From: a virus
Taxonomy: Duplodnaviria; Caudoviricetes
Length of the DNA stretch: 39,838 bases
IMG/VR virus record: IMGVR_UViG_3300033417_000028
Span: 1-39,838 of that record
Reading direction: 5' to 3' (one strand)
Shown: positions 1-39,838 of the stretch, one piece after another
How the letters are laid out: each line of letters opens with the position of its first letter
Numbering within the stretch: the first letter of the stretch is position 1
Position numbers and translations under genes: made by a program
Notes under the pieces: generated by a model
Databases searched by the model: none
Seen by the model: the letters and a program-made list of their open reading frames with translations, nothing else
What the model was told of the DNA's origin: nothing

Positions 1-127
1 GGGTATGAGATAAGAGATATTATTTTAGACTACGACTTCAAAAAGTTTGAAGATAAAACACTTGGAAGTATTCTAACGTATCCTAGAGATTTTGGGTATT
101 GCAAAGGCGATTACTTCCTTAATGTGA
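1..127. repeat. 127-bp terminal direct repeat (identical to 39712-39838); circular assembly overlap
   Basis: GGGTATGAGATAAG...CCTTAATGTGA is identical at both ends, and joining the ends restores one continuous ORF. Confidence 0.95.
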
Positions 128-687
128 TACAAAAACACATCAAAGACAAATTAGGAAGCAAGGACGCTACTTTTTACGACCTGAAAAAAAAGGGATTCAA
201 AGACCTTCGTGTTTATTCCACAGAATTGGGTTCATACCAAACCTGCAGGGAGTTTTCCTTTAACGAGTCTCCTCATTGCCCCATTGCTATGGCCGTTAGG
301 TATTCAATGAGCATACCGGGTATTTTTAAATCTTTAAAATACGATGGGAAATACCAAATAGATGGTGGTATGACGTGCAACTTCCCGATACACGCATTTG
401 ACAAAATAAGCACTCCCGACGAGGTGCTAGGGCTATTTTTATTCAACAAAGAAGAGAATGAAGATTTCAAACCACTAAAAGGATGGCGACCGGGAAAGTT
501 CATCGTTCAATCTTTTAAAGCCTCTTTAAAATCACAGGACATCAACTTTTTTAAAGATGAAGAAGAGGTGAAAAGAACTATAATTCTAAACACATTAGGC
601 ATCTCTTCCACCAACTTCAAAATCACTCAGGAAGAAAAACTTAGGTTGATTAAATCGGGATACGATTGCGCTAGGGTGTCATTTTAA
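1..687 (+). CDS. Patatin-like phospholipase, C-terminal part
   Basis: Frame-1 continuation with AVRYSMSIPGIF and the DGG catalytic-Asp motif (YQIDGGMTCNFP). Confidence 0.9.
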   Translation, partial: GYEIRDIILDYDFKKFEDKTLGSILTYPRDFGYCKGDYFLNVIQKHIKDKLGSKDATFYDLKKKGFKDLRVYSTELGSYQTCREFSFNESPHCPIAMAVRYSMSIPGIFKSLKYDGKYQIDGGMTCNFPIHAFDKISTPDEVLGLFLFNKEENEDFKPLKGWRPGKFIVQSFKASLKSQDINFFKDEEEVKRTIILNTLGISSTNFKITQEEKLRLIKSGYDCARVSF

Positions 688-1486: not shown

Positions 1487-1590
1487 CTTTGTTTTTACGT
1501 TCAATCTCTTTTTCTATCTCCTTATATTCTCTGTTTATTTTCTCTCTAAATGCAACCCTCATAAATTGACTCATTTTAATACCTATAGAC

Positions 1591-1614
1591 GCCAAGCCGC
1601 AAAACGTTAGTTGC
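1591..1614. mobile_element. attC-like half site A (truncated), left end of array 1
   Basis: GCCAAGCCGCAAAAC-GTTAGTTG has the same GCAAAAC-GTTAG right arm as site C; its core is complementary to CAACTAAC at 2381. Confidence 0.65.
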
Positions 1615-1787
1615 TATTTGTTTTTGTTCTTTTTTGCCCCACGCTCTTTGGTTTTTTCAAAACCATTAGGATTGGCTTCTCGTTCCAAAATAGACTGTGC
1701 CAAGTTTTTAAAATCCGTATTTTCATCAATCGCTCTTTTTGAAATAGTCTTTACACATTCATTCGATAAATCAAGTAACTTTTTCAT
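1614..1787 (-). CDS. Small hypothetical protein (57 aa, possibly ribbon-helix-helix-like), cassette 1
   Basis: MKKLLDLSNECVKTISKRAIDENTDFKNLAQSILEREAN..., read manually; ATG abuts the upstream stop. Confidence 0.6.
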   Translation of the reverse strand: MKKLLDLSNECVKTISKRAIDENTDFKNLAQSILEREANPNGFEKTKERGAKKNKNK

Positions 1788-2036
1788 TTATATATTGTAT
1801 TTGTGGTTGTGTAAATAATTTATTTCTTCTTCTGTCATTAAGTTGATTGTTTCTAATATCTTTTTCCAAGAGTCTTCTATTTTATTAAAATCATCAACAT
1901 TAAATTCTCCTTTGTTTTCAATTTGAGATAATATCGTCATCCATCTTTTTCCTTTAACTTCTCTTACAGCAATCATCCAATCAAAATGACAACTTCTACA
2001 CCAATTTGTAAAAACTTTCTTTTCTTTAGTTTTCAT
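1788..2036 (-). CDS. Hypothetical protein, cassette 1
   Basis: ORF with ATG at 2036, overlapping the upstream gene. Confidence 0.6.
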   Translation of the reverse strand: MKTKEKKVFTNWCRSCHFDWMIAVREVKGKRWMTILSQIENKGEFNVDDFNKIEDSWKKILETINLMTEEEINYLHNHKYNI

Positions 2037-2220
2037 ATCCAAAAATTAAAGGTAAATCAGTATTTTCCTTGTCATCAGAAAACATTCTACCTTGTTCTCT
2101 TGCATTTTTAATATCTTCCAACGCTTCTTTTTTAGAAATCTTTGTGAATGATGTTTCATAGGTGTCAAACTTCTTCATCCAAGTTCCTTTTGTTGTTCTT
2201 TTAATTGTGATTGTTTCCAT
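2026..2220 (-). CDS. Hypothetical protein, cassette 1 (METITIKRTT...)
   Basis: ATG at 2220 lies just downstream of a TATATTTG promoter box at 2240-2247. Confidence 0.65.
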   Translation of the reverse strand: METITIKRTTKGTWMKKFDTYETSFTKISKKEALEDIKNAREQGRMFSDDKENTDLPLIFGYEN

Positions 2221-2380
2221 TCTTATTAGTTTTGTTTTACAAATATATACTATATATACGAGATATACAACAAAAAGTTTCAAATATTTTATAACTCACT
2301 ATAAATCAATACAATTATTTTTCCTCCCCTTCTCAAAAAAGAACAAAAACAAACAGAATCAGCCCACAATCCCACCGCAC

Positions 2381-2446
2381 CAACTAACAAAGTATATAAA
2401 ACAACTTCGTACCTCAGTCGATTTTATATACTCAACCGTTATAAGC
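2381..2446. mobile_element. attC-like hairpin site B
   Basis: CAACTAAC-aa-AGTATATAAAA...TTTTATATACT-caacc-GTTATAAGC. Confidence 0.85.
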
Positions 2447-2462
2447 AATAAAATAAAATTGC

Positions 2463-2681
2463 CTACACACGCTCAATAATGAAGTAATCGTTTCCAATCG
2501 TAATTCCTTTTTTAAGGTTGCTTTTTTTGTTTGCAATATTTACAAAATGTTCGAGTTCATTCTTCTTTAAACTTTTATTCAAAGCCTTAAAAAAGCAATC
2601 TTCATCGACTTCCGTTAATTGTGCAGGTTTGCAAACTAATTTTCCATACACAACTGCATTTCCTATTTTAAATTTTTCCAT
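2463..2681 (-). CDS. Hypothetical protein, cassette 2
   Basis: 72-aa ORF filling the segment bounded by GTTATAAGC and GCTTATAAC. Confidence 0.7.
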   Translation of the reverse strand: MEKFKIGNAVVYGKLVCKPAQLTEVDEDCFFKALNKSLKKNELEHFVNIANKKSNLKKGITIGNDYFIIERV

Positions 2682-2701
2682 CGCTTTAATTTTATTTTAC
2701 A

Positions 2702-2779
2702 GCTTATAACAGCACATACACGCTATTTTGCCACGCTCAATCCAACGCCCACAGCGTGTATCTGCAAAACGTTAGGCTT
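2702..2779. mobile_element. attC-like hairpin site C
   Basis: GCTTATAAC-a-GCAcATACACGCT...AGCGTGTATcTGC-aaaac-GTTAGGCTT. Confidence 0.85.
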
Positions 2780-3005
2780 CATTTGCCTCCGCACCACAAT
2801 TCATACAAATCCTTACATATTGGTGTACAGATTTTCTGCCACACTTTTTAAATACAGTTGCATCTTGTCCTGCTTGCTGTTCTGGTGTGCAAGGATTGTC
2901 TTTCCTTTCATTTACTAAATCCTGATAATGTTCTGCTTGACTTTTCATCGGGTTTGTGTGCGTTCTCATATAAGCATCACCCCAACATTTTTCACAACTT
3001 GCCAT
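2772..3005 (-). CDS. Cys-rich (zinc-binding-like) small protein, cassette 3
   Basis: MASCEKCWGDA...CMNCG; its TAA stop lies inside the GCCTAAC core. Confidence 0.75.
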   Translation of the reverse strand: MASCEKCWGDAYMRTHTNPMKSQAEHYQDLVNERKDNPCTPEQQAGQDATVFKKCGRKSVHQYVRICMNCGAEANEA

Positions 3006-3038
3006 AATTTTTAAGTTTATCCCACCCGCAAAAAAAGA

Positions 3039-3334
3039 AAGCCTAACAATGTATAACAGCAATACTAACTTTCGTCTTCAAATTCAACTATCGGATGCAA
3101 AATAGATTTTGGTTCCTTTCGTTCCATTCCTTCTGCTATCACTTTTTTAATCATTCTGTTAAAAATCGTTGCACTTTTTTTTGTATAGTATGTCTCTCTG
3201 CTACCCAAGTGTGTACTTATCGCAAGTGCTACACAGTAAAGTTCTTTGTCTGTAAAATCTATTTTATTTCGTGCCATGATTCAAGTTTTAATGTTAATAA
3301 TCCGTACTGCTGTTATACTTTACCGTTAGCATTA
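3039..3334. mobile_element. attC-like site D with a ~240-bp gene-containing loop
   Basis: AAGCCTAAC-aat-GTATAACAGCAATAC (3051-3065) ... GTACTGCTGTTATAC (3304-3318)-tttacc-GTTAGCATTA. Confidence 0.75.
3065..3277 (-). CDS. Hypothetical protein nested in the loop of site D
   Basis: 70-aa ORF MARNKIDF... lying between the two arms. Confidence 0.65.
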   Translation of the reverse strand: MARNKIDFTDKELYCVALAISTHLGSRETYYTKKSATIFNRMIKKVIAEGMERKEPKSILHPIVEFEDES

Positions 3335-3335
3335 A

Positions 3336-3530
3336 TTACTTGCTACCGCACATTACACACACTTTTGCGTATTGATGCACTGTTTTTCTATTACACTTTT
3401 GGCAATTTTTTGCGTCTCTGCCAGCCTGTTCTTCATGTGTGCAAGGGTTGTCTTTTCTTTCTTCAATTAGTTCTTGGTACTTTTCTGCGTTTCCCCACGC
3501 ATCTTCCCAACATTTTTCACAACTTGGCAT
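3336..3530 (-). CDS. Cys-rich small protein, paralog of 2772-3005, cassette 4
   Basis: MPSCEKCWEDA...ERKDNPCT.E.QAG.DA...CVMCG; the longer ORF call runs through site E. Confidence 0.75.
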   Translation of the reverse strand: MPSCEKCWEDAWGNAEKYQELIEERKDNPCTHEEQAGRDAKNCQKCNRKTVHQYAKVCVMCGSK

Positions 3531-3557
3531 AATCTCAATTTTAGCCCGCAAGTAACA

Positions 3558-3659
3558 TAATGCTAACAAGCGGTATAGTTTATAAGCCTTTGAAAGTTTA
3601 TCGTTGGATTGAAGTGGTGTGGTAGGCTTACAAAACCATACCGCCAATCCGTTAGCTGC
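3558..3659. mobile_element. attC-like hairpin site E
   Basis: TAATGCTAAC-aa-GCGGTATAGTTTATAAGCCT...AGGCTTACAAAACCATACCGC-caatcc-GTTAGCTGC. Confidence 0.85.
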
Positions 3660-3685
3660 TATTTGTATTAAAATTTTCCCCACGC

Positions 3686-4042
3686 TCAGAACGGTAAATC
3701 ATTTTCAACCTCGTCAAATAATGGAGGTTGCCTTTTTCTTTCTTCCCAATATTTGCGATCTGCTTCTTCATGATCTCTTGTGTCCTTAATCCAGTCCCAT
3801 ATTTCCATCAGCTTCGGGAATCCTTTCAAATCATCTCTATCAATGTCGTCCGGGCATTCATAGCAAAAGTCGTCAAGTGATAGGGTTTTGTTGAATTTCC
3901 TATTCCACCTTTCCATTTGCTCCTTTTCTTTTGCCTCTTCTTCTTCAAATTCTCGTTGTGATCTGCACGGCAAACATTCACCATTAACAAAATCCTCGTC
4001 AAGTTGAGGTCCGTAATTTTCTTTACAATTCTTACATTCCAT
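3686..4042 (-). CDS. Hypothetical protein with CxxC motifs and acidic DLPF C-terminus
   Basis: 118-aa ORF. Confidence 0.7.
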   Translation of the reverse strand: MECKNCKENYGPQLDEDFVNGECLPCRSQREFEEEEAKEKEQMERWNRKFNKTLSLDDFCYECPDDIDRDDLKGFPKLMEIWDWIKDTRDHEEADRKYWEERKRQPPLFDEVENDLPF

Positions 4043-4226
4043 CGCTCAAAATTTTAATACTTTCATAATGTATTGTTTTAAAATTAGTTACTAAATAAAA
4101 ACCGAACGGCTTACACCGCATAAAACCAATAAAGGTTTCAGTGGGTAATTTCGGCATTGTAGCCCGTTCAAACTGTTGTGTATCTTGATAGTTCATCTCT
4201 CGCATTCCTTTACTGGTCTTATACAA
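4032..4226 (-). CDS. Hypothetical protein
   Basis: Short ORF overlapping the next start; start position uncertain. Confidence 0.4.
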   Translation of the reverse strand: MYKTSKGMREMNYQDTQQFERATMPKLPTETFIGFMRCKPFGFYLVTNFKTIHYESIKILSDGM

Positions 4227-4251
4227 AACGTTTTTTCTTTTTGGATTACGT

Positions 4252-5778: not shown

Positions 5779-6690
5779 TTATTTTATGAACTTTAACGCC
5801 TCTTTTATTTCTGTTTGACCCCCCACCCCCTTTCCGGTTAAAGAATCAACTTGGCTGTCCTTAAGCATCTCAATTGCGCCTTGCGCTTGCTCTTTATTGT
5901 AAGTCGACATGTGTTTTTCTATAAACTCTTTCTTTTCCTCTGATATAGTAGAGGTGTGAAGAAGCCCATCAATGTAATTTAGTTGCTCGAATGTTGCCTG
6001 AAAGTCGTCATTTGTTAAATCAATAGCTTTTGCGAGTTTATCGAAATTTGATTTAGGCAAATATTTTACTATCCTTTTGATAACTGTTTTTCGAGCCATT
6101 TCATCAAACCAGTCATCCCAAATACAAGACTTTGCTTTTCCTCCCTTAAATGACTTGTAGCTTTCGGACGTGTCTCTTATTCCCTCCACCTCTTTAATAT
6201 CCATAACCTCCGTTTGCTTTGACCCATTAGCCAAAACAGCAACTGCATAAACACCAATCATTTTGCCCCTTACACCAAGTTTTGGCTTGTGTATAATAAT
6301 ATTTTCAGTGCCTAAATTCTGTTCAAATTCGTCGTTTTCGTAAACTAAATGAGCGTAACAGTTAACTATACTCCCGCTATCCGTAAGAAGTTTAATTAAA
6401 CCCTGATATGATGGCTCTAAGCAACATTCTATTGCACTTGAAGCACTATTATAGCGAGGAACTAAATACGCCAGCTTCTGAGCCGGATTAAGCGTCAGTC
6501 CTATTTGAGCCAAATTTAAAACACTTACCAATATACTATTTGGAGTTGACCTAGACAAGTAGGCGTTTTTCTGTAAATGCTGCAATGCAAAGGAACATTC
6601 CTTTTCAAAAGTTTTTTCATCAACCAACTCAGCAAACATTTTTTTAATCGGGGTAAAGTCTGCTTTGTTTTTAATCGGATTTGATTCCAT
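5779..6690 (-). CDS. recT: RecT/Bet-family single-strand annealing protein
   Basis: GLTLNP...AYLVP, SYQGLIKL, VYENDEF, W...DEMARKTVIKR..KYLP motifs. Confidence 0.9.
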   Translation of the reverse strand: MESNPIKNKADFTPIKKMFAELVDEKTFEKECSFALQHLQKNAYLSRSTPNSILVSVLNLAQIGLTLNPAQKLAYLVPRYNSASSAIECCLEPSYQGLIKLLTDSGSIVNCYAHLVYENDEFEQNLGTENIIIHKPKLGVRGKMIGVYAVAVLANGSKQTEVMDIKEVEGIRDTSESYKSFKGGKAKSCIWDDWFDEMARKTVIKRIVKYLPKSNFDKLAKAIDLTNDDFQATFEQLNYIDGLLHTSTISEEKKEFIEKHMSTYNKEQAQGAIEMLKDSQVDSLTGKGVGGQTEIKEALKFIK

Positions 6691-6919: not shown

Positions 6920-7131
6920 CATTTCGACAAAAATACAACAGTAAGCAATGCAACAGAACACGTCAGTACGAATGCTGTGATAGCGAACCACACCCTTTCT
7001 GTAGCTTTTATTTCTCTCAGAAAATAGTCTGCTAGGTCATTTGCAGGGTCACTAGAGTTGACCATTATTGATTTAACTATTTTTTTTGTTGCGTAAAATT
7101 CTGTTTTTTTCATGTGTTTTTTTTTAGTCAA
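6919..7131 (-). CDS. Small membrane protein
   Basis: C-terminal hydrophobic helix. Confidence 0.55.
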   Translation of the reverse strand: MTKKKHMKKTEFYATKKIVKSIMVNSSDPANDLADYFLREIKATERVWFAITAFVLTCSVALLTVVFLSK

Positions 7132-7714
7132 AATAAATTATTTCAAATTCTCCTTTCTTCATGTAAATCCGGTTGTTCTGCCTTTCGATCACCACCGCCG
7201 TGCCGTAGTTGTCTGTGACCGTGCCGTAGTTGCGTGTGACCGTGCCGTAGTTGCGTGTGACCGTGCCGTAGTTGTCTGTGACCGTGCCGGAGTTGCGTGT
7301 GACCGTGCCGTAGTTGTATGTGACCGTGCCGGAGTTGCGTGTGACCGTGCCGTAGTTGCGTGTGACCGTGCCGGAGTTGTATGTGACCGTGCCGTAGTTG
7401 TCTGTGACCGTGCCGGAGAGATTTATAGACAAAACGCTTTCGTCAATCACGCATTCTTTTTTTTCGATAAAAATATTATGATTATTTAAAATATTAGCAT
7501 CGTATTGCTCCAAAATCTCAACCGAAATCACATTATGGCTAACAGCCCATGAGCCATTTATACAGATTATTTTCCAAAAATCTGCTTCATTTTTTGAGTT
7601 CATTAATTTGCCGAACTCTTCATCATAAGGAGTGTTTTGGCTTCCGCATGCTTCTTTTTCTATACATTTCTGTATTATAATTTCTCGAATTTCTTCAAAA
7701 GATAATTTTTCCAT
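7124..7714 (-). CDS. Protein with ten GTVT[DYR]N[YS] heptad repeats (beta-solenoid-like)
   Basis: 196-aa ORF containing a 21-bp tandem repeat. Confidence 0.8.
   Translation of the reverse strand: MEKLSFEEIREIIIQKCIEKEACGSQNTPYDEEFGKLMNSKNEADFWKIICINGSWAVSHNVISVEILEQYDANILNNHNIFIEKKECVIDESVLSINLSGTVTDNYGTVTYNSGTVTRNYGTVTRNSGTVTYNYGTVTRNSGTVTDNYGTVTRNYGTVTRNYGTVTDNYGTAVVIERQNNRIYMKKGEFEIIYFD
7198..7417. repeat. 21-bp coding tandem repeat, 10 units plus a partial
   Basis: CCGTGCCG[T/G]AGTTG[TC/CG/TA]TGTGA units. Confidence 0.95.
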
Positions 7715-8406: not shown

Positions 8407-8423
8407 GTTTTTTTGTTTTTGTG

Positions 8424-8484
8424 TTTAAAAAAGAGGTTATACGGTTATCCTCACCGCTTGCCAAACCTTGCAAGTCAAACAAGA
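8424..8484 (-). terminator. Repeated intergenic hairpin plus U-tract element (copy 1)
   Basis: Minus strand: CTTGCAAGGTT..GCGGTGAGGATAACCGTATAACCTCTTTTTT; near-identical to 8803-8859. Confidence 0.6.
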
Positions 8485-8768: not shown

Positions 8769-8802
8769 GTTTTGTGGTGTTTTTTTAGTTATTTATATTA
8801 TA

Positions 8803-8859
8803 TTTAAAAAAGAGGTTCTACGGTTATCCCCACCGCTTGCAACCTTGCAAGTGACAAGA
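8803..8859 (-). terminator. Repeated intergenic hairpin plus U-tract element (copy 2)
   Basis: Minus strand: CTTGCAAGGTT-GCAAGCGGTGGGGATAACCGTAGAACCTCTTTTTT. Confidence 0.6.
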
Positions 8860-9781: not shown

Positions 9782-9821
9782 GTGTGTTTAATTTAATATA
9801 AATCAATTAGTTATGTTGCCT

Positions 9822-9847
9822 AGTTGCTCTTAGCGATATGTTAGGTG
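9822..9847. mobile_element. Array-terminal core site F (non-hairpin, attI-like candidate)
   Basis: AGTTGCTCTTAGCGATAT-GTTAGGTG; core complementary to CACCTAAC at 10704; 21/22 inverted copy at 11994-12015. Confidence 0.55.
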
Positions 9848-9892
9848 CAAGTTTTAAATAAATATTTTTTGCCCACGCTCCCATAAAATTTT

Positions 9893-10651
9893 TCAAATTT
9901 TTAAAAGGTTAATAGCCTTAAATATCTCAAATGCAACCTGTGGCACTATTGCGTTTCCGTATGCTTTAATGCTTTCGTTTCTCCATTTAGAAAAGGTAAT
10001 TCCGTCCAGTCTTTCGGAAAGCCCATCATTTCCGCTACCAAAGAAGGACGTAGCAATTGTTGGTTTGAAACCTCCAAGTTCAATAAAATCTTTATGGCTG
10101 TTTCCGTGTGTGGGCTGTTCCGTTTCCGTTCGCTTTGGCAATCCTTTTTGTCCCCTCTTGCTTTTGGAGTGTCCAATAAACCAAACTCTGTCCCTCCGAT
10201 GGGTAGCGTCTTTGGCACAAGCTGGAAGTATATACGTGAATACTTCGTAGCCCTCATTTTCCAAATCAGCTTGCACTTCGTTGAATACCATTCCCCCGTT
10301 CCAATTAACAATTCCGCTAACATTTTCCCCCACAACCCAACTTGGTTGAACCTCTCTAATTGCTCTAAGCATTTCCGGCCATAGATGGCGTTCATCCTCT
10401 TTACCTTTTCGCAATCCTGCTGCTGAATATGGTTGGCAGGGAAAACCTCCTGTAATAATGTCAATTGTGTTTGCATATTTTGTAAAATCTGTTTTCGTTA
10501 TATCTCCGTGTCCTTCTGCTTCCGGGAAATGGTATCTTAAAACCTTTTGCCCAAACTCATTCCATTCACACCAAGCAACTGTTTCCCATCCAGCCCATCT
10601 TGCAGCTAAACTAAAACCTCCTATACCTTCAAATAATCCTAAGTGTTTCAT
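9893..10651 (-). CDS. dcm: C5-cytosine DNA methyltransferase (carried as cassette 5)
   Basis: Motif I LFEGIGG, IV GGFPCQ, VI ENV, VIII RDRVW, X YGNAIVPQV. Confidence 0.93.
   Translation of the reverse strand: MKHLGLFEGIGGFSLAARWAGWETVAWCEWNEFGQKVLRYHFPEAEGHGDITKTDFTKYANTIDIITGGFPCQPYSAAGLRKGKEDERHLWPEMLRAIREVQPSWVVGENVSGIVNWNGGMVFNEVQADLENEGYEVFTYILPACAKDATHRRDRVWFIGHSKSKRGQKGLPKRTETEQPTHGNSHKDFIELGGFKPTIATSFFGSGNDGLSERLDGITFSKWRNESIKAYGNAIVPQVAFEIFKAINLLKI
9946..10476 (-). CDS. Alternative-frame ORF nested in the MTase; putative beta subunit carrying motif IX
   Basis: 176-codon open frame ending LVAEMMGFPKDWT, which resembles motif IX; start uncertain. Confidence 0.6.
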   Translation of the reverse strand: MQTQLTLLQEVFPANHIQQQDCEKVKRMNAIYGRKCLEQLERFNQVGLWGKMLAELLIGTGEWYSTKCKLIWKMRATKYSRIYFQLVPKTLPIGGTEFGLLDTPKARGDKKDCQSERKRNSPHTETAIKILLNLEVSNQQLLRPSLVAEMMGFPKDWTELPFLNGETKALKHTETQ

Positions 10652-10703
10652 AATTAAAATGCCAACGCACCCCTCTCAAAAAAAATATTTATTTAAAACC
10701 AGA

Positions 10704-10786
10704 CACCTAACATGGGCTATACAAAAGCTACTCCAACGCACAAGCCAACCCCTCGTAGCCTTCGCATAGCCCCGACCGTTAGCCAC
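10704..10786. mobile_element. attC-like hairpin site G
   Basis: CACCTAAC-at-GGGCTAT..GCTAC...GTAGC..ATAGCCC-cgacc-GTTAGCCAC. Confidence 0.85.
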
Positions 10787-11006
10787 AATTAGCCAACACA
10801 CGCTTTATGTAGTTGTCAAATACTTCATACGCTTCTCTCATTTCCTTTATGTCGTAGGAGAATTGAACTTGCCTTGCGTATTTGAATGCTTCTTTCAATT
10901 CAGCCATATATTTAGAAGTTACTATTGTCTTGCCTTCTTTCGGCTTGGGTATCGAGTCAAGTCCAGATATTACGCTATTTAGTATTTGTTCTTTATTTAA
11001 TGCCAT
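10779..11006 (-). CDS. Hypothetical protein, cassette 6
   Basis: 75 aa; TAA stop inside the GGCTAAC core. Confidence 0.75.
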   Translation of the reverse strand: MALNKEQILNSVISGLDSIPKPKEGKTIVTSKYMAELKEAFKYARQVQFSYDIKEMREAYEVFDNYIKRVLANCG

Positions 11007-11018
11007 CGCTCTTTAAAA

Positions 11019-11118
11019 GTGGCTAACACAAAATATAGTGAATAGCCGATTAAACATTTATTTTTCATAGCCAAGTTTTAGGTGTCGGCTACTCACCATA
11101 TTCAACACGTTATAAAAC
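11019..11118. mobile_element. attC-like hairpin site H
   Basis: GTGGCTAAC..AATATaGTGAaTAGCCGA...TCGGCTAcTCACcATATT-caacac-GTTATAAAAC. Confidence 0.85.
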
Positions 11119-11144
11119 ATTGTTTAATTAATAAAAATAAAAGC

Positions 11145-11663
11145 CTACGCACCGCTTTGAAGAACATTTTTCAAGGCTTCTATGTATTGTTTATAATTTC
11201 CATAATAAACGTGCTTTACCGCCTCATAAAAATCAATTATTTCATCGTGTGTTTTGAATAATTTTTTCGGCAAATGAAAAGTATATTCTCCTTCGTAATT
11301 CCATTCTATTTTTTCTCCTGTTTTCAAAAATTTGAATATACGATTAATTATTGTTCTTGATTTATCTGCGGAACAAGCAGAACCCTCTTTTTCAACAATT
11401 AGTTTCAAAAAATGATTTTCAACAAATCTTGAATGTAGTAGCAAAAAATCAACTTTATCATTTTTGCATATTTCACTTCTTATAAGCCCTTTTAAAAATT
11501 TAGAATGCGGATAAATAAGCGAAAAATAGAAACTCTCACAGTCATCTATTTTCATATTTCCACGTTCTTCAATCAACTTGCTATATAAGTCAATATTATC
11601 TTGCTCTATTGAGCCTAACATTCCGTTAAGCACTTCTTTTATTTTATCATTTTCTAATGCCAT
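11145..11663 (-). CDS. Hypothetical protein between sites H and I
   Basis: 172-aa AT-rich ORF with AAAGCGATG start context like other cassette genes. Confidence 0.75.
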   Translation of the reverse strand: MALENDKIKEVLNGMLGSIEQDNIDLYSKLIEERGNMKIDDCESFYFSLIYPHSKFLKGLIRSEICKNDKVDFLLLHSRFVENHFLKLIVEKEGSACSADKSRTIINRIFKFLKTGEKIEWNYEGEYTFHLPKKLFKTHDEIIDFYEAVKHVYYGNYKQYIEALKNVLQSGA

Positions 11664-11724
11664 CGCTTTTTTTTAATTTTTGTTAGTAGTTATTTATTCA
11701 GTTCATCGGTTAATCAATCCTACT

Positions 11725-11789
11725 GCTGGTAACACCACCTTTGCGCTACTTCGTTCCTCGCAGCAGCAAAGCTGTAACCGTTAGCAAAC
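11725..11789. mobile_element. attC-like hairpin site I
   Basis: GCTGGTAAC-ac-CAcCTTTGC...GCAAAGcTG-taacc-GTTAGCAAAC; loop CTTCGTTCCTC resembles site B loop CTTCGTACCTC. Confidence 0.8.
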
Positions 11790-11905
11790 ATTGCCTTACT
11801 TCTCGGTAATTTTGATGTTTTCGATACTAATACCATTACCATAACCGTTCATCTTGTTTTGTTTTTTTCAGATTAATCGGAATTTCCGATAAATCTAAAT
11901 CTCCA

Positions 11906-11998
11906 CAAATATAGGTTAAATATTAAACGTGTCAAGTATTTTTTATATATTTGTTGAAAATTAGGTTGATTGTTACATTTCGTTGTAGATATGTAACA
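11906..11998. promoter_or_regulatory. Divergent promoter region with palindromic operator
   Basis: TATATTTG on - (11906-11913) and + (11946-11953); TGTTACAT-N12-ATGTAACA at 11971-11998; coding strand switches here. Confidence 0.6.
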
Positions 11999-12053
11999 TA
12001 TCGCTAAGAGTAACTGATCAATGTAACTAACTGAAACCCAAAACGATAAACAC

Positions 12054-12245
12054 ATGAACTACGCTATCAAAGCATTGATTAATCAAGGCAAATTATGCAA
12101 AGATTTACTCCAAAAAAAACGATCTGAATTTTTAGAAAAAGACTTTGAAATGACATCGGATTATGAGTTCTGCGTTGCAGATATTCATAATTTGGAAAAG
12201 CAAATCAAAGAAATAAACGAAGCGATTGAAATACTTACAAGTTAA
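12054..12245 (+). CDS. Hypothetical coiled-coil protein
   Basis: 63-aa first rightward ORF. Confidence 0.65.
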   Translation: MNYAIKALINQGKLCKDLLQKKRSEFLEKDFEMTSDYEFCVADIHNLEKQIKEINEAIEILTS

Positions 12246-15349: not shown

Positions 15350-15964
15350 ATGGCAAAGCAAAAATCACCAACAAAGTTATCAGATCTAATCCCGGACGAT
15401 AAAAACTTCAACAAAGGGTCGGAGTTCGGAAGCTCTTTAATTGAAAAGTCGTTCAGAAAGTTCGGCGCTGGCCGGTCGATTCTTATTGATAAAAATAATC
15501 GGATAATCGCCGGGAATAAGTCGGTTGAAAATGCCGGAGCAATCGGAATGGAAGATGTTCAGATTGTTGAAAGTGATGGTAAACGAATAATTGCAGTAAA
15601 GCGAATAGATATTGACATAGACAGCCCAATAGGCAGGGAGATGGCTTTAGCTGACAATGCCAGCGCAAAGGCGAATATTGTTTTTGACGCTGAATTGTTG
15701 GAGGCAGAGTTAACAGATGCCGATGTAGAGGAGTGGGGGCTTGTAACGCATGACTTAATTGAGGAAGATGTAGACCTAAAGCAACACACAGACAGCGCAG
15801 AAAAGTATATGAACAACACCGTTAGGCAGATTCTTTTAGTTTTTGACAATGAAACGCACAAGGTAGTCGTAGAAAAGCTAAAGGCTATCGGAGAAAAATA
15901 TAACATTTTGGAAGATAATTCAGCAACAGTATTAAAGTTAATAGAATACTATGAAGGTAATTGA
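15350..15964 (+). CDS. ParB N-terminal-like domain protein
   Basis: LIPDDKNFNK...SFRKFGAGRSILIDKNNRIIAGN...ALADN. Confidence 0.8.
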   Translation: MAKQKSPTKLSDLIPDDKNFNKGSEFGSSLIEKSFRKFGAGRSILIDKNNRIIAGNKSVENAGAIGMEDVQIVESDGKRIIAVKRIDIDIDSPIGREMALADNASAKANIVFDAELLEAELTDADVEEWGLVTHDLIEEDVDLKQHTDSAEKYMNNTVRQILLVFDNETHKVVVEKLKAIGEKYNILEDNSATVLKLIEYYEGN

Positions 15965-16871
15965 CATCCCCCTATTAGATGTGGATTTGAGTAGCTTTAT
16001 GAAGCGCCTTGCAAAAGAGGTTGACTGCGATCACATCATAAACTATGACTGCCTGATAAAATCAGGAGGTGTCCCCAAAATACTTTATCTAAAGCTTACC
16101 GACACTGAAACTAAGTTCGTAAGGCAGGCCTGTAAAAATATTAAATACACAAAGGTTGAAAGGATTTCAACAGGATTAATTACAAAGGGTAAAAATAGAA
16201 CATTTGGGCTTCGTCCGAAAAGGGCCATGAGCCAATTTGCGAGTAGCTGCTCTGCCACGTCACTTGCTAAAGACAGCCCGATTGAACACAATATACTTTG
16301 CGACTTTATAAAAAAGTTAACTCCTTTTTACAAAGACTTTTTTCCGGGTGAGTACACGAAAAATAGCGAGGAGGTTAGTAAAAGAGTACTGCCGGAGTGG
16401 CAAATTGAAAACACCCCATTTACAAGTGGCATAGTGAACTATAACTCAGAGCTACAATACCACTACGACATTGGTCACTTTCATGGGGCGCTATCGGTAA
16501 TGCTTACACTTAAAAATGGAGTAAAAGGGGGGGGGCTGTGTTTTCCTGAGCTTGGAATAAATATTGATCTTGCCGATAATACAATTTTGCTAATGGACGG
16601 ACAGGAGATGATGCATGGAGTGACGCCAATAATAAAAAAGAAAAACAACGGCTATAGATATACTATTGTTTACTACTCATTGTTACAAATGTGGAGGTGT
16701 TTGCCAATAACAGAGGAGATAATCGCAACAAGAAAAATGAGAGCGAAAAGAGAGTCTAAAAGGGCTAATGGAGATGTAGGATCATTAAATATGGATACTA
16801 CGAAGGACGGCAAGTCCTTTTCGGAAAAGGCAACATTGGCGATTGCTAAGAAAGTAAACAAGATTAAGTGA
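15951..16871 (+). CDS. 2OG-Fe(II) dioxygenase, TET/JBP-like
   Basis: HYD (HxD), GGGLCFPE, HGVTP and RYTIVYY motifs; next to ParB and the terminases. Confidence 0.75.
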   Translation: MKVIDIPLLDVDLSSFMKRLAKEVDCDHIINYDCLIKSGGVPKILYLKLTDTETKFVRQACKNIKYTKVERISTGLITKGKNRTFGLRPKRAMSQFASSCSATSLAKDSPIEHNILCDFIKKLTPFYKDFFPGEYTKNSEEVSKRVLPEWQIENTPFTSGIVNYNSELQYHYDIGHFHGALSVMLTLKNGVKGGGLCFPELGINIDLADNTILLMDGQEMMHGVTPIIKKKNNGYRYTIVYYSLLQMWRCLPITEEIIATRKMRAKRESKRANGDVGSLNMDTTKDGKSFSEKATLAIAKKVNKIK

Positions 16872-17401: not shown

Positions 17402-18698
17402 TTTTTGGGAGTTCTGCTTATACGTTGATCCTGAGTTTTTCAAAAAAAGACTATTTTTAAAAAAAATCGCAAATGCGTTCATGCGCATTCACAATGGCGA
17501 GATCCGTCACCTTTCCGTTTCCCTTCCTCCTAGAGCCGGAAAGTCTTACATCACATCTTTATTTTGCGCTTGGACTCTTGCGAAGAGGCCTACAGAATCC
17601 GTCATGCGCAACACATGCACGGCTAGGCTATATGAGAAGTTTAGCTATGACGTGAGAAATATTATTCGAGAGCCTCCATTTAGGGAGGTGTTTTTTGATG
17701 TTGAGTTGGCGCCAGATAAGCAATCTGTTAACGGGTGGAGTCTAAGCACGTCAAGACAGGTAGGATATTTCGGGGCAGGACTAACCGGAACTATTATAGG
17801 ATTCGGGGCTACTGCATTGGCCATTACTGATGATATGTATAAGTCTCTCGAAGACGCATTAAGTGACAATATGAATGACAAGATACTTTCGTGGGAGGAG
17901 TCCGCTCATGAGTCTAGGATGGAGAAGAGGTGTCCAAGGATAGACATAGGTACTCGTTGGAGGAAGAACGATTTGATTGGTAGAAATATTGAACGAAAAG
18001 AATATGACGAAAGTATAATCGTTCCAGCGCTAGATCAGGATGGGAAATCATTCTGTGATGACGTAAAGTCTACCGCTGAATATTTGCGAATAAAAGATAA
18101 AACAGACTCTCAAATATGGGATGCGGAGTATATGCAAGAGCCGATCGAGGCAAAGGGTGTACTTTTTCCAAAGGGAGAACTCAGGTACTATAAGCCTGAT
18201 AGCGCATTATTATTCGAAACATCATTAGCTTATTGCGATGTTGCTGACCAAGGAGATGACAACCTAAGCGCACCTAATGGCCGGCACATTGGCAGCGATG
18301 TATATATCACCGATTGGCTGTTTTGTAAAGATAACAGCGATATCACCCTACCACTGTTAGCCCAAATGATAACCGAAAACAGCACAAAATATATTCGTGT
18401 AGAGTCTAACTCGATGGGGGCGATTTATTCCCGTGACCTAATGAAGATCACTAAAGCAGAGGTTTATCAAGCGCACTCGTCAGCCAACAAACACACACGT
18501 ATATTGATGGATGCTGGATTCGTGAAGAAGCACTTCGTGTTCCTTCATCCGGACTATCAGGATTCTGACTACAAGAGTGCGATGGATCAGATGTGCGGCT
18601 ACCTTAAGAATGGAAAGTCAAACAAAGACGATGCGCCGGATAGCATCAGCGGACTAGCAACATTTATCCGAACAATGTTTGAACATTTATATCGCTAA
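17334..18698 (+). CDS. terL: Terminase large subunit
   Basis: Walker A LPPRAGKS, Walker B ITDD, YMQEP, nuclease DVA...DDAPDS. Confidence 0.93.
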   Translation: MSNSKTLRKEIAKEARKELARRDFWEFCLYVDPEFFKKRLFLKKIANAFMRIHNGEIRHLSVSLPPRAGKSYITSLFCAWTLAKRPTESVMRNTCTARLYEKFSYDVRNIIREPPFREVFFDVELAPDKQSVNGWSLSTSRQVGYFGAGLTGTIIGFGATALAITDDMYKSLEDALSDNMNDKILSWEESAHESRMEKRCPRIDIGTRWRKNDLIGRNIERKEYDESIIVPALDQDGKSFCDDVKSTAEYLRIKDKTDSQIWDAEYMQEPIEAKGVLFPKGELRYYKPDSALLFETSLAYCDVADQGDDNLSAPNGRHIGSDVYITDWLFCKDNSDITLPLLAQMITENSTKYIRVESNSMGAIYSRDLMKITKAEVYQAHSSANKHTRILMDAGFVKKHFVFLHPDYQDSDYKSAMDQMCGYLKNGKSNKDDAPDSISGLATFIRTMFEHLYR

Positions 18699-19912
18699 AG
18701 GCTCAACCCGAAAGAATTGTTATAAATGTTTTTGACTTGATCTAGAGTTATGATCCCTTTTTCGTAAGCGTCTTTTACCGAGTTGAGCTGCTTGGTTATG
18801 ATGTCTGCCTCTTGTCCTTTATCATCTTGCAGCATGCTGATGTGAGAGTAGTCTAGCTCAACCCTTTGGTTGTCTGGGACTCTTAGGGCGTTACCAAGTG
18901 TTTGCGTGAAGGCATCGGCGGCAGGGAATATGGCGTCATTGTAAGTCTGTATGATTGCATTTTTAACATTCTCATACGTTTGATTCTTAGAGCTAAATAG
19001 GTTTATGTTTAAATTAAAATGATCGCAAATTGTTAATTTATTCGCATCTATCTGCTCCAGAAGCAGCAACTCTCCAGTTGGGTAGGTCATAGGTGTCCAA
19101 GCAACATCGCCCGATACTATAGAGACTCTTGATTGCCCGTCCTTAACCCCGTGCGTTTTGGAGTACTGCTTTTCTAATTTTTCTCTCTGTTCTGCTCCCA
19201 TCGGTAACGCTCCAGCGCTATCCTTTGTTTTGCCTGAAATCATCCCTATTGCCCCCTTCTCTCCGCTTATAATATTGAGATATTGATAAGCTAGCTTGGT
19301 GTTTGATAGTGGGAATTTGAGCGAAACAAGGGGCGACTTACCTATCACCAAGTCATCTAGGTCGTCGTGCTTACTCCATGCAATTTCATCAGATTTAAAC
19401 TCACGCTTTAGCTTCTCGTTTTCATATTTATACTTACTGACAACGCCGCTAATATCTATCTGATCGAATAGCTTACCGGTAAGGATAGGGCTCAGATATC
19501 GGGGAGATATGTTCATTATCGACGTTGGATATTTGGCCAGCTTCGAAGGACGATTAAAATACATGAACTGATTGCCATAGACGTCAAGTTGCTTACTATA
19601 ATTATTCATCCACTTGTTCTGAGTCTGCATCATATTTGGGCGCTCCAAAAGAGCCGTCAATTCTCCATCTTCGATTATTGCATTTGACTTAATGTCTCTA
19701 AGTCTAAATATTCCATTCGAGAACATATCTGCTTTCTTTGATATGACTTGATTTAATTCTGGTATTTCGTTATATAATCGGTAAGGCACTTTAGTATCGA
19801 CCCATACGGCTCCAAGGGGCTTGAAAATTACACCATTGTTAAAAAAACGTTTTTCTTCGTCTTGAAACCAGCTTCGGATGCCGTCGATAAGATTAGTCAC
19901 TATAGTCGCCAT
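18695..19912 (-). CDS. Portal protein (HK97-like), inverted orientation
   Basis: 405 aa; LLERPN, LDVYGNQF, GKSPL, ICDHF, TYENVKNA motifs. Confidence 0.88.
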   Translation of the reverse strand: MATIVTNLIDGIRSWFQDEEKRFFNNGVIFKPLGAVWVDTKVPYRLYNEIPELNQVISKKADMFSNGIFRLRDIKSNAIIEDGELTALLERPNMMQTQNKWMNNYSKQLDVYGNQFMYFNRPSKLAKYPTSIMNISPRYLSPILTGKLFDQIDISGVVSKYKYENEKLKREFKSDEIAWSKHDDLDDLVIGKSPLVSLKFPLSNTKLAYQYLNIISGEKGAIGMISGKTKDSAGALPMGAEQREKLEKQYSKTHGVKDGQSRVSIVSGDVAWTPMTYPTGELLLLEQIDANKLTICDHFNLNINLFSSKNQTYENVKNAIIQTYNDAIFPAADAFTQTLGNALRVPDNQRVELDYSHISMLQDDKGQEADIITKQLNSVKDAYEKGIITLDQVKNIYNNSFGLSL

Positions 19913-35366: not shown

Positions 35367-38285
35367 ATGAAAAAAATACTATTATTATCGCTGTTATTAT
35401 TGGCCGAAATTGGCTACTCTCAAAGACAAGTACCAAGGGGTGGTGACGCAGGGCAAACGTTAGAGGTAGGCTCTGACGGTTATAGCTTGGAGTGGGGGAC
35501 TCCCTTTTCAGGGTGGTCATTGACGGGGAATGACACGATAGACTCAACAGCTAACTTCATAGGCACTTTAGACGACAACCCATTTATTATTCGAACGAAT
35601 GACACCGAAAAGATAAGGGTAATGTCAGGGGGTAATATTGGCATAGGCACTCCTTCGCCTACGAATGATTTAAGTTTTGGCAACTCCAAGGATAGGACTA
35701 TATGGGTAGAAAGCACGGATTCATTAACCAATGGCAGAGGTCTCAGCATTATGGCTGGAAGTACTTCGGAAGGTGGAAGCGCTGGTGACTTCATTGCTCT
35801 CGGACAAACAAGTAGGAGTTGGATTGGCATGGCTGCTGCGCCTAATGGCAACGTGTATGCTTGTGTTTCGGGTGGCGACATCTACATGCAGACTGGCGGC
35901 GCTGGTGACTTCATTGCTCTCGGACAAACAAGTAGGAGTTGGCATGGCATGGCTGCTGCGCCTAATGGTGATGTGTATGCTTGTGTTTTTGGCGGCGACA
36001 TATACATGCAAACGGGCGGCGCTGGTGACTTCATTGCTCTCGGACAAACAAGTAGGAATTGGACTGGCATGGCTGCTGCGCCTAATGGTGATGTGTATGC
36101 TTGTGTTGTTTTTGGCGACATCTACATGCAAACGGGCGGCGCTGGTGACTTCATTGCTCTCGGACAAACAAGTAGGGATTGGTTTGGCATGGCTGCTGCG
36201 CCTAATGGCAACGTGTATGCTTGTGTTTCGGGTGGCGACATCTACATGCAGACTGGCGGCGCTGGTGACTTCATTGCTCTCGGACAAACAAGTAGGAATT
36301 GGATTGGCATGGCTGCTGCGCCTAATGGTGATGTATATGCCCCCATCATTGCTGGCGACATATACATGCAAACGGGCGGCGCTGGTGACTTCATTGCTCT
36401 CGGACAAACAAGTAGGAATTGGCGAGGCATGGCCGCTGCGCCTAATGGTGATGTATATGCCCCCGTCGTTGCTGGCGACATATACATTCAAGAAGCATTC
36501 AACAAATCTGGCGGCAACTTAACATTGTCAGCAGGGCGAAGCAATGGTGCTGGCGAATCCAATATTTACTTCCAAACTTCACCACCATCGACGGCTGGCG
36601 ATACCTCTTTGAACGCCCTCTACACGCAGATGACAATAGTAGGTAGTGGAAATGTAGGCATAGGGACGACATCGCCAACCGAAAAACTAGAAGTAGTAGG
36701 AGGAGTAAAATCAGACTCTATAATTATTGGAGATACAAAAATGCTGGAGAGCAGCATTACTGCTGACTCATTTATGATAGTGTCTTCGAAAAGTTATTTG
36801 TCTGAAACGCCTCCCGATAATGACAGTAGCAATAAGATAGCTACAACTGGATATGTTGACAGAACTGCTCAGGGTATTTACGACTCATTAACGCTTACCC
36901 CCCCTTACTATGGCGATCAAATTGATTGGGCTGGTACGGGCAATAACTTTATTACGACCGATGTATCTTTACAAATAAAAACAGATAAAACGACAACAAA
37001 TTCCAATATAAAAATTGATTCGGCAACAATTAATTCGAACATTACTAAAGGGGTGCGAGAGTCTTACATTGACCACAAGTTTGACCGGATAACAATATAT
37101 CCGGACTCTATTTTAGCAATTGGAGGAGACGTGTTTAACGCATCTACAACATCCGGATTAACAGGTCTCTACTACGACGATAATGTAGGCGCTCAGGTTT
37201 TTGGGGATCAGATTCAATTTTTTACTAACAGTTTTAATGCTGAGATGCACATCGTGGATAGCGATGGTTCGATCAAGGTTAGAGCCGACACAGTTCAGAT
37301 AGACATCCCATCCAAGGGCGATGGTAAGGTGCTTACATCTGATAGCGACGGGGGTGCTTCTTGGCAGGATCCTGTTCTTTATACTCCACCCTATTACGAG
37401 GATAGCATTTCTTATTCTGGCGATGCTACTGTGTCTGCCGATGATTTTACTTTAGAGACTGATAATTTCACTTTAGAGGCTGTGGACGACATTAGTATGT
37501 ATGCTGCCGACACATTCAACATTGTTGGTGATGCTGATCTTTATTTATATGGTTCATTAGGTGTTAGAATAAATACTCCTATAGGTGCTATGACTATTAC
37601 GTCATACACAAATATGAGTTTGAGTACTTCGCAAGGTGATTTAAACTTATCTACAGGGAATATTCTCAATGTTACCGCAGATTCTTTTTTACTTACCAAT
37701 GTTCCTACACCTCCTTTAGGGGATAGTACAAAAAAGGTGGCAACAACCGCATACGTGGACAGGGCGACGGCTACCGCAACATATCCAACATCATGGTCAT
37801 TAACAAGCACCATCACAATAGGGGCTGTAACCACCCCTCCAACAAAAGCGACAACGGTAGAAAATGATTTTGTTAGGTATAGGACTAAAGAGCCTGCGAT
37901 AGGTTCTAATACGGAATTGATTGAGGTTGATTATATGTACTCTTCATCTTCTAGTGCAGGAGCAGCAGGAGGAAGTGGTAACTATTTATTTGAATTGCCA
38001 AACGGATATGAGTTCAACTCTACTGAACATCCTGTTTATACAGGAACTACAGACCTTTCTGGAGGCAGTACTTCAATCTACGCTATCGACAGAGGCAAGC
38101 CACAAGGGATGATTTTTGGAGATGGGTTCTATGATTTGGTGCTAATAGTTCCTTACGATGCGACCCATTTTAGAATTATATCATTGGGCGGCAATGCCTC
38201 CGACGAGTGGGTGGGTAGCGGCTGGTATCCAATTACACAAAACACGAAAGTAATGTCTTTTAAATTTACATTTTATAAACAATAA
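35367..38285 (+). CDS. Tail fibre/adhesin-like protein with signal peptide and six 40-aa repeats
   Basis: MKKILLLSLLLLAEIGYSQ; GN(I/V)GIGT.SP, GKVLTSD..G.ASW and K(I/V)ATT(G/A)YVD fibre motifs. Confidence 0.75.
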   Translation: MKKILLLSLLLLAEIGYSQRQVPRGGDAGQTLEVGSDGYSLEWGTPFSGWSLTGNDTIDSTANFIGTLDDNPFIIRTNDTEKIRVMSGGNIGIGTPSPTNDLSFGNSKDRTIWVESTDSLTNGRGLSIMAGSTSEGGSAGDFIALGQTSRSWIGMAAAPNGNVYACVSGGDIYMQTGGAGDFIALGQTSRSWHGMAAAPNGDVYACVFGGDIYMQTGGAGDFIALGQTSRNWTGMAAAPNGDVYACVVFGDIYMQTGGAGDFIALGQTSRDWFGMAAAPNGNVYACVSGGDIYMQTGGAGDFIALGQTSRNWIGMAAAPNGDVYAPIIAGDIYMQTGGAGDFIALGQTSRNWRGMAAAPNGDVYAPVVAGDIYIQEAFNKSGGNLTLSAGRSNGAGESNIYFQTSPPSTAGDTSLNALYTQMTIVGSGNVGIGTTSPTEKLEVVGGVKSDSIIIGDTKMLESSITADSFMIVSSKSYLSETPPDNDSSNKIATTGYVDRTAQGIYDSLTLTPPYYGDQIDWAGTGNNFITTDVSLQIKTDKTTTNSNIKIDSATINSNITKGVRESYIDHKFDRITIYPDSILAIGGDVFNASTTSGLTGLYYDDNVGAQVFGDQIQFFTNSFNAEMHIVDSDGSIKVRADTVQIDIPSKGDGKVLTSDSDGGASWQDPVLYTPPYYEDSISYSGDATVSADDFTLETDNFTLEAVDDISMYAADTFNIVGDADLYLYGSLGVRINTPIGAMTITSYTNMSLSTSQGDLNLSTGNILNVTADSFLLTNVPTPPLGDSTKKVATTAYVDRATATATYPTSWSLTSTITIGAVTTPPTKATTVENDFVRYRTKEPAIGSNTELIEVDYMYSSSSSAGAAGGSGNYLFELPNGYEFNSTEHPVYTGTTDLSGGSTSIYAIDRGKPQGMIFGDGFYDLVLIVPYDATHFRIISLGGNASDEWVGSGWYPITQNTKVMSFKFTFYKQ
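35781..36488 (+). repeat. 120-bp tandem repeat x6 (likely beta-propeller blades)
   Basis: Units start at 35781, 35901, 36021, 36141, 36261 and 36381. Confidence 0.95.
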
Positions 38286-39534: not shown

Positions 39535-39838
39535 ATGATAGATCCGTCAAAGATAAGATTTGTCTGCTCTAAAGGAGGAGGTGTTCGCATTGCCGCTTAT
39601 GCCGGTGCAGCTATTTATCTTGACGACATTGGCGTATTGAAAAAGGTAGAAGGATTTGCCGGCACAAGCGCCGGAGCTATATTCTCTACCCTTGCCGCCC
39701 TGGGGTATTCCGGGTATGAGATAAGAGATATTATTTTAGACTACGACTTCAAAAAGTTTGAAGATAAAACACTTGGAAGTATTCTAACGTATCCTAGAGA
39801 TTTTGGGTATTGCAAAGGCGATTACTTCCTTAATGTGA
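39535..39838 (+). CDS. Patatin-like phospholipase, N-terminal part (continues across the origin to 687; ~287 aa total)
   Basis: MIDPSKIRFVCSKGGGVRIAAYAG...FAGTSAGA contains the GGGxR oxyanion loop and the GxSxG nucleophile motif. Confidence 0.9.
   Translation, partial: MIDPSKIRFVCSKGGGVRIAAYAGAAIYLDDIGVLKKVEGFAGTSAGAIFSTLAALGYSGYEIRDIILDYDFKKFEDKTLGSILTYPRDFGYCKGDYFLNV
39712..39838. repeat. Second copy of the 127-bp terminal repeat
   Basis: Identical to 1-127. Confidence 0.95.

Follow-up and report, generated by a model that had tools for sequence, protein, structure and literature searches.

We found two arrays of small gene units bounded by imperfect hairpins in the window, by which we mean the whole analysed stretch of 39,838 bases, a complete virus record with direct terminal repeats at its ends. 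With a probability of roughly 0.8, these units are integron-like cassettes of a Bacteroidota type that would be moved by a predicted Xer-like recombinase coming from the host or from another phage. The arrays are best read as a variant of the integron cassette system, neither made of standard attC sites nor a complete integron. The phage encodes a terminase, a portal, a major head protein, RecT, a DnaD-like protein, a helicase and a C5 methyltransferase. Matches to an 18-nt probe taken from half site A (listed below) lie in 121 genome stretches and, because most of the 80 titles among the matches listed name Bacteroidota or related phyla, the host is probably a member of the Bacteroidota.

Array 1, at 1591-3659, comprises four hairpin sites (B to E) and one half site (A), and its head is this half hairpin, with no attI. 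Its features are the following.

1588-1613, plus strand: half site A, with the 3' arm and the crossover core (GTT at 1606); 5' arm absent, partner arm not called by the detector
1606-2388, minus strand: cassette 1 body; small ORFs at 2026-2220, 1788-2042 and 1614-1787
2385-2441, plus strand: site B, 57 nt, spacers 2:5
2438-2710, minus strand: cassette 2 body, ORF 2463-2681 (72 aa); ends pair over 9 nt, then over 12 nt more
2707-2774, plus strand: site C, 68 nt, spacers 1:5; hairpin family joined to 18 other genes elsewhere
2771-3047, minus strand: cassette 3 body, ORF 2772-3005 (77 aa, Cys-rich); ends pair over 9 nt, stop codon within the core
3044-3328, plus strand: site D, 285 nt, spacers 3:6; a gene lies within the loop
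3065-3277, minus strand: loop gene of site D, 70 aa, 23 homologues
3325-3567, minus strand: cassette 4 body, ORF 3336-3530 (64 aa, paralogue of 2772-3005); ends pair over 10 nt
3564-3654, plus strand: site E, 91 nt, spacers 2:6
3651-4233, no strand assigned: possible fifth, decayed cassette (weak), with ORF 3686-4042 on the minus strand and a damaged site at about 4104-4233

All core sequences quoted in the original prediction are present at their positions, and its description of B to E as hairpins with 1-3 nt opposite 5-6 nt holds for each of the four. It had also stated that the two cores of one hairpin match each other over TAAC/GTTA only, which is true of B and C (4 nt each) and slightly exceeded by D and E, since their own cores match over 5 and 6 nt; the two cores bounding each segment do match as claimed, over 8-10 nt compared with these 4-6 nt. 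Site D, at 285 nt, is too long to count as a small hairpin and has ORF 3065-3277 within its loop. Segment 1 does not hold one gene as had been supposed, having three ORFs, for which we found no Pfam match, and the stop codon said to fall inside a core is that of ORF 2772-3005. The ends of cassette 1 combine an 8-nt pairing with an offset 23-nt inverted repeat, and the last 23 nt of half site A have an exact match at other loci. A search for viral relatives of ORF 2463-2681 found none. In the possible fifth cassette the arms are visible by eye and the ends are complementary over 13 nt; its damaged site was neither called by the detector nor paired in the predicted fold. The segment ends of array 1 pair over 8, 9, 9 and 10 nt, which is the best among 120 possible assignments, and for both arrays together the observed pairing sum is reached by 3 of 181,440 assignments.

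Array 2 lies at 9840-11783 and, with the attI-like sites on either side of it, has the following features.

9818-9843, plus strand: attI-like site, non-hairpin, core at 9840, heading array 2; profile rank 2 of 717 cores
9840-10711, minus strand: cassette with the C5 cytosine methyltransferase gene 9893-10651 (PF00145); ends pair over 8 nt plus about 19 nt
10708-10781, plus strand: site G, spacers 2:5
10778-11027, minus strand: cassette body, ORF 10779-11006; ends pair over 9 nt
11024-11112, plus strand: site H, spacers 4:6
11109-11733, minus strand: segment with ORF 11145-11663 (172 aa, 52 homologues); ends unmatched (4 nt)
11730-11783, plus strand: site I, 54 nt, with a weaker stem; under the detector threshold
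11994-12019, minus strand: second attI-like site, empty, an inverted copy of the first (41 nt, 83%); rank 3 of 717

The claim that every cassette has self-complementary ends is borne out by six of the seven segments and fails for 11109-11733; for the ORF of this segment, too, viral relatives were searched and none found. The attI profile was built from 64 non-hairpin array heads of other loci and used to rank 717 cores of the phage. Of 616 hairpin cores across the loci, 604 have a C just before the GTT; array heads, which have no hairpin, often have A or T there. The cores at 9840 (+) and 11997 (-) stand 57-59 nt ahead of the next start codon and flank a divergent region, and the profile points to core 9840 as a candidate, attI-like site at the head of array 2. 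The profile's top core in the phage, at 381 on the minus strand inside a patatin gene, was taken as a chance match. A fixed AGTT-N14-GTT rule for attI gave way to the profile after fitting just 13 of 149 first cores. One contig matches 11780-11852 from the G of the core onward with an unrelated flank, a lone and weak hint that we do not count as evidence.

The detector searched for the pattern YAAC-spacer-arm...arm-spacer-GTTR and called 8 sites in the phage, the two outside the first 12 kb being weak matches within tail genes; the 6 in the first 12 kb compare with 0-3 (mean 0.5) in 30 dinucleotide shuffles. It overlooks some real sites, among them site I and both tested sites of the Polaribacter phage P12002L, and therefore the site counts are lower bounds. 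Loci gathered from viral, genome and metagenome collections with three sequence probes, a sampling that biases the site families, gave 575 distinct sites, and hundreds of loci, viral and Bacteroidota, contain the same sites. In 145 of the 201 viral segments and 83 of the 106 from genomes, the two ends match over 8-10 nt, compared with 13 of 316 (viral) and 20 of 215 (genome) for the two cores of single hairpins. This pairing always stops short of 11 nt: a mismatch at position 11 is conserved, and 3-4 further pairs lie beyond it; the core stem measures 9-10 bp. With the long spacer fixed at 5, 213 of the 295 viral sites and 170 of the 210 from genomes have a short spacer of 1 nt, while an aadA7 control attC gave spacers of 6:5; in the phage the short spacer is 1-4 nt opposite 5-6 nt. 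As in attC, AAC/GTT cores (R'' and R') flank an imperfect stem; the attC pattern of central spacers of 5 and 5-6 nt with extrahelical bases in the L box was not found. The sites are a Bacteroidota variant, distinct from standard attC. The phage has the layout of a CALIN, with at least two clustered attC-like sites and no integrase, built of sites that fall outside attC geometry. The sequence CACGCT, seen at the 3' ends of the phage's cassette genes, was dropped as a general motif, being found in just 2 of 139 viral segments.

Evidence that such units move comes from related loci. As the cassette reading had foreseen, blocks that begin and end at G|TT were found in new contexts in related viral and Bacteroidota loci, which supports that reading. 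Three blocks of 410 nt (99.8% identical, loci L199 and L238), 341 nt (100%, L201 and L204) and 338 nt (92.6%, L256 and L265) have R' at both ends and unlike contexts, each consisting of one gene and its upstream hairpin, and a two-gene block of 1.44 kb has the same core boundaries in five bacterial loci. A duplicated cassette in L121 has kept its downstream hairpin (98%), while the upstream hairpin differs (60%). Because the shared blocks and the L121 duplicate are bounded in this way, the unit extends, like an integron cassette, from one G|TT to the next; in the related loci the crossover lies at the G|TT of R', and the hairpin moves with the segment upstream of it on the top strand. Of the 69 alignment ends in the phage loci, 17 are no more than 15 nt from R' (the core beside the long spacer), some of these 17 reflecting common hairpin families and not moved cassettes; 8 are near R'' and 44 away from sites, with about 1.3% expected per class. 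These boundary data come from other cassettes, as the search for close copies of array 1 cassettes in other contexts found none, and blastn of array 1 against cultured phages gave 18 short, weak matches, none of them useful. The excised circles or joint reads suggested as a check did not appear in two public runs of low and patchy cover. The further proposal that the accessory genome is built of cassettes is too wide, as they make up only about 4 kb of a leftward early region of about 11 kb.

The phage itself has no integrase beside its arrays and no tyrosine recombinase anywhere in its 39,838 bases (PF00589 in six frames, with the control positive in 14 of 14 genomes), and tblastn with four array-linked recombinases found no match in it. 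Since the phage carries no recombinase, the present mobility of its cassettes is something that we can only infer. Using the same four locus proteins as queries, we found recombinase matches in 13 of 121 genome loci (four of these being the queries themselves), 5 of 188 viral loci (on four contigs) and 0 of 18 metagenome loci, and most loci have no enzyme within the fetched stretch. In seven bacterial loci the recombinase gene lies upstream of the array and in the same direction, in three genome loci and the four viral contigs it points away from the array, and of the remaining loci two have no visible site and one is ambiguous. All 12 recombinases tested score 134-208 bits on TIGR02249, under the integron integrase cut-off of 265, and only 1 of the 12 passes the cut-off of the archaeal XerA model, with NF040815 mostly scoring highest. 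Relative to IntI4 they have 23 residues where IntI4 has 65 (about 42 fewer), and on this ground the I2 region is missing from them. The predicted pairing of these recombinases with the sites is by adjacency only.

We hypothesise that one strand of a site would fold into two arms of about 10 bp around a central loop that is lopsided, usually with 5 nt facing 1 nt, and that the strand cut would be the one reading AA|C and then the long spacer, a choice based on the known polarity of tyrosine recombinases. A cassette would exit as a circle made of the segment and the hairpin to its right on the plus strand, here upstream of its gene, and circles would insert at an attI-like site or at another hairpin, with the recombinase supplied in trans by the host or another phage. 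The lopsided loop would replace the extrahelical bases and the I2 helix of true integrons. As the cut strand would also be the coding strand, the array would be read from its far end towards attI by a leftward early promoter; promoter scans gave results not above chance (38 vs 40 and 39 vs 48). In 257 of 302 phage sites, and in only 94 of 191 genome sites, it is the long-spacer strand that has the more stable fold, and because the effect is absent from genome sites, folding energy gives no independent support for the choice of strand and was dropped as an argument for it.

The orientation of the genes differs between phages and bacteria. All 11 listed ORFs of both arrays are on the minus strand, the strand reading AAC and then the long spacer, and the integron arrangement of a gene on the top strand with attC at its 3' end was not found here. 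Single-gene cassettes in the one-probe set are reversed in 23 of 23 viral vs 3 of 38 genome cases; in the larger set, which left out 49 viral and 33 genome segments without a single dominant ORF, the counts are 93 of 96 viral vs 8 of 50 genome (42 of 50 forward), and by locus 44 of 46 viral vs 4 of 25 genome. The reversed polarity predicts that a promoterless host cassette captured by a phage would be silent, and vice versa.

A cassette origin is compatible with two states at present, active or frozen. The arrays might be remnants, once mobile, that now change only by RecT-type homologous exchange between similar hairpins, an explanation that agrees with the cassette reading on origin and differs on present activity. 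The phage does carry a RecT-like gene (5779-6690) and no recombinase, half site A, the damaged site at about 4104-4233 and the unmatched segment 11109-11733 speak for this explanation, and the 8 of 69 alignment ends near R'' point the same way. We nevertheless regard frozen arrays as possible and rather doubtful, given that six of the seven segments keep perfect pairing over 8-10 nt at variable positions, that the attI-like site is intact, and that cassettes 99.8-100% identical occur in unlike contexts of other phages.

Two other accounts would dispense with a new kind of site. If the hairpins were ordinary attC sites, forming a CALIN worked by a standard integron integrase, the identical AAC/GTT cores and crossover position would be expected, phage CALINs have been published, and IntI1 recombined five of six phage sites in the tests reported by Qi et al. 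2023 (PMC9892861). Yet the spacers are mostly 5:1 vs 6:5 in the aadA7 control, a search of five host genomes found an IntI over the cut-off in none, and the P12002L site of the same type, a single site, failed with IntI1, so that we hold this to be very unlikely. An account of the hairpins as RNA elements or as dispersed repeats between genes (processing sites, terminators or REP-like sequences) is in our view extremely improbable: co-transcribed genes do lie on either side of them, and in phages the coding strand has the more stable fold, but such elements leave unexplained the pairing of far ends, the exact G|TT boundaries, and the recombinases and attI-like cores at array heads. A search of the phage and five loci against Rfam found no family at the gathering score, Flavo-1 included, and gave only chance snoRNA and miRNA matches.

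The integron-like cassette reading gains context from published systems. Using standard attC models, Qi et al. 2023 reported 17 CALINs in 10,705 phages (PMC9892861); attC clusters in phages are few, and complete integrons are almost absent from Bacteroidota in surveys (PMC9024848). Their phage CALINs resemble the present arrays in having attC-like hairpins between small genes, no integrase and methyltransferase cargo, and one of the phages, Polaribacter P12002L, infects Bacteroidota; the sections of that report considered here describe no lopsided geometry, reversed genes or separate recombinase (PMC9892861). The attC1 site of P12002L, which has the same lopsided geometry as the present sites, was the one of six that IntI1 failed to recombine, while its attC2, which IntI1 integrated, resembles one arm of such a site (PMC9892861). 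We found no published description of a Bacteroidota variant with lopsided sites in a literature that was mainly the openly accessible one, and the arrays suggest a widespread cassette system in Bacteroidota and their phages, largely missed by standard models.

The arrays share with integrons, especially sedentary chromosomal ones, the AAC/GTT cores, the G|TT crossover, an end pairing that is restored in the circle, a putative first site that is not a hairpin, and the reuse of one hairpin family with many genes, for which we take the Vibrio VCRs to be a parallel. Unlike in integrons, the central loop is about 5:1 and not 6:5, position 11 is mismatched, the recombinase lacks the I2 region and lies upstream of and codirectional with the array in seven bacterial loci, the phage genes are reversed, and a gene can occupy the loop of a hairpin. 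Xer enzymes act on double-stranded dif sites. The array-linked enzymes are like the Xer family (archaeal XerA, XerC/D) in aligning with XerA without a large gap, and unlike it in adjoining cassette arrays and in just one of 12 exceeding the XerA cut-off. Single-strand recombination by integron integrases is attributed to an innovation of theirs, the I2 helix (PMC7790495); an I2-less enzyme acting on hairpins, if that is what these are, would represent either an independent solution or an ancestral state.

The phage pool also bears on how cassettes first form, a process described as largely unknown (PMC5371416). Hairpin C, in loci that had been picked with a probe from this very hairpin, has 19 copies of 91-98.5% identity with 18 other genes, the likeness ending at the AAC core, and 85 of the 89 pairs of near-identical hairpins in the whole set of loci belong to unrelated segments; only 4 near-identical pairs join a virus and a genome. 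In another phage (locus L333, 72% identical) the site D loop gene forms the body of an ordinary cassette, and the flanks next to it are the same. End pairing extends beyond the core in 29 of the 120 viral segments and 6 of the 83 from genomes vs 0.6% for shuffled partners, and in 4 of 8 segments of this phage. Array 1 contains the Cys-rich gene twice, and 11 of the 13 loci related to this gene have no sites. Hairpin reuse, the loop gene, the extended ends and these cassette-free relatives together suggest that phage genes have repeatedly been turned into cassettes. Exchange at the second edge of a site could produce new cassettes, and RecT-type exchange at common arms could explain part of their formation. 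With its reversed genes, stock hairpins on many genes and long paired ends, the pool offers testable material on the origin of cassettes.

One could go further and propose a pseudo-symmetric folded site at which an I2-less recombinase exchanges at either edge, with genes and hairpin loops swapped as modules. The site geometry can be read in this way, with two arms of about 10 bp, a mismatch and 4 bp around the lopsided loop, and such swapping fits the hairpin found on 19 genes, the gene that is loop here and body in L333, the 29 of 120 phage cassettes with extended ends and the 11 of 13 loci that are cassette-free; we nonetheless think it unlikely. If true, it would amount to a second solution to single-strand recombination and would make de novo cassette formation visible, with phage genes flanked by self-complementary sequence being joined to stock hairpins, and new cassettes would always arise in the phage's own reversed polarity. 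A strict form of the cassette reading is weakened by the Cys-rich gene, most of whose related loci lack such flanks; at L010 the gene is a cassette in forward polarity, and at L002 it is accompanied by a single symmetric hairpin.

Array 2, one of the two rows of reversed small genes lying between integron-like hairpin sites, is bracketed together with a divergent region by two inverted attI-like sites, that is, cores without a hairpin (window 9803-9843 and 11994-12034), of which the right-hand one (11994-12034) is empty. Speculatively, recombination between both sites would result in an inversion of about 2.2 kb. A CACGCT-like motif (window 1640, 2468, 2732, 3681, 9874, 10799 and 11150) is present close to the 3' end of most cassette genes and also in hairpin C of array 1; in the cassettes of other phages it is rare.

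Related loci fetched from other genomes also contain cassettes and sites. A relative of the array 1 gene at 3336-3530 lies in a cassette of L010 (1905-3213), a phage with 48% G+C, with spacers 4:6 and 3:5 on the two sides of the central loops and in forward polarity, and the ORF of this cassette continues through the downstream site. In the terminase relative L018 (62% identity), sites of the array type occur at 1153-2068; they lie upstream of the terminase by about 3 kb and thus in another location than the arrays of the window phage. Five bacterial loci (L080, at 10713-12151, L086, L087, L095 and L118) have in common a 1.44-kb two-gene cassette, the first after the recombinase in L095, whose genes we take to resemble a metal-responsive regulator and a transporter.

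Outside the arrays, the portal gene (18695-19912, minus strand) is inverted with respect to the terminase and head genes, and is likewise inverted in six of the eight terminase relatives with a portal match. Repeats, duplicated leaders and further genes of the window are as follows.

7156-7470, minus strand: tandem repeat of 21 nt within ORF 7124-7714, reported in 11 overlapping copies
35659-36558, plus strand: 120-nt repeats in a 982-aa tail-region protein
927-974 and 1440-1487: first pair of duplicated leaders, preceding leftward genes and carrying a palindrome
8410-8461 and 8789-8840: second pair of duplicated leaders, preceding leftward genes
15951-16871, plus strand: Tet/JBP-family 2OG-Fe oxygenase (PF12851), downstream of a ParB-like gene
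39535-39838 and 1-687, plus strand: patatin-like phospholipase gene (PF01734), spanning the assembly junction

The 21-nt repeat encodes a 7-residue repeat, and both pairs of leaders are possibly regulatory elements. The oxygenase, following the ParB-like gene, could be part of a DNA base modification module.
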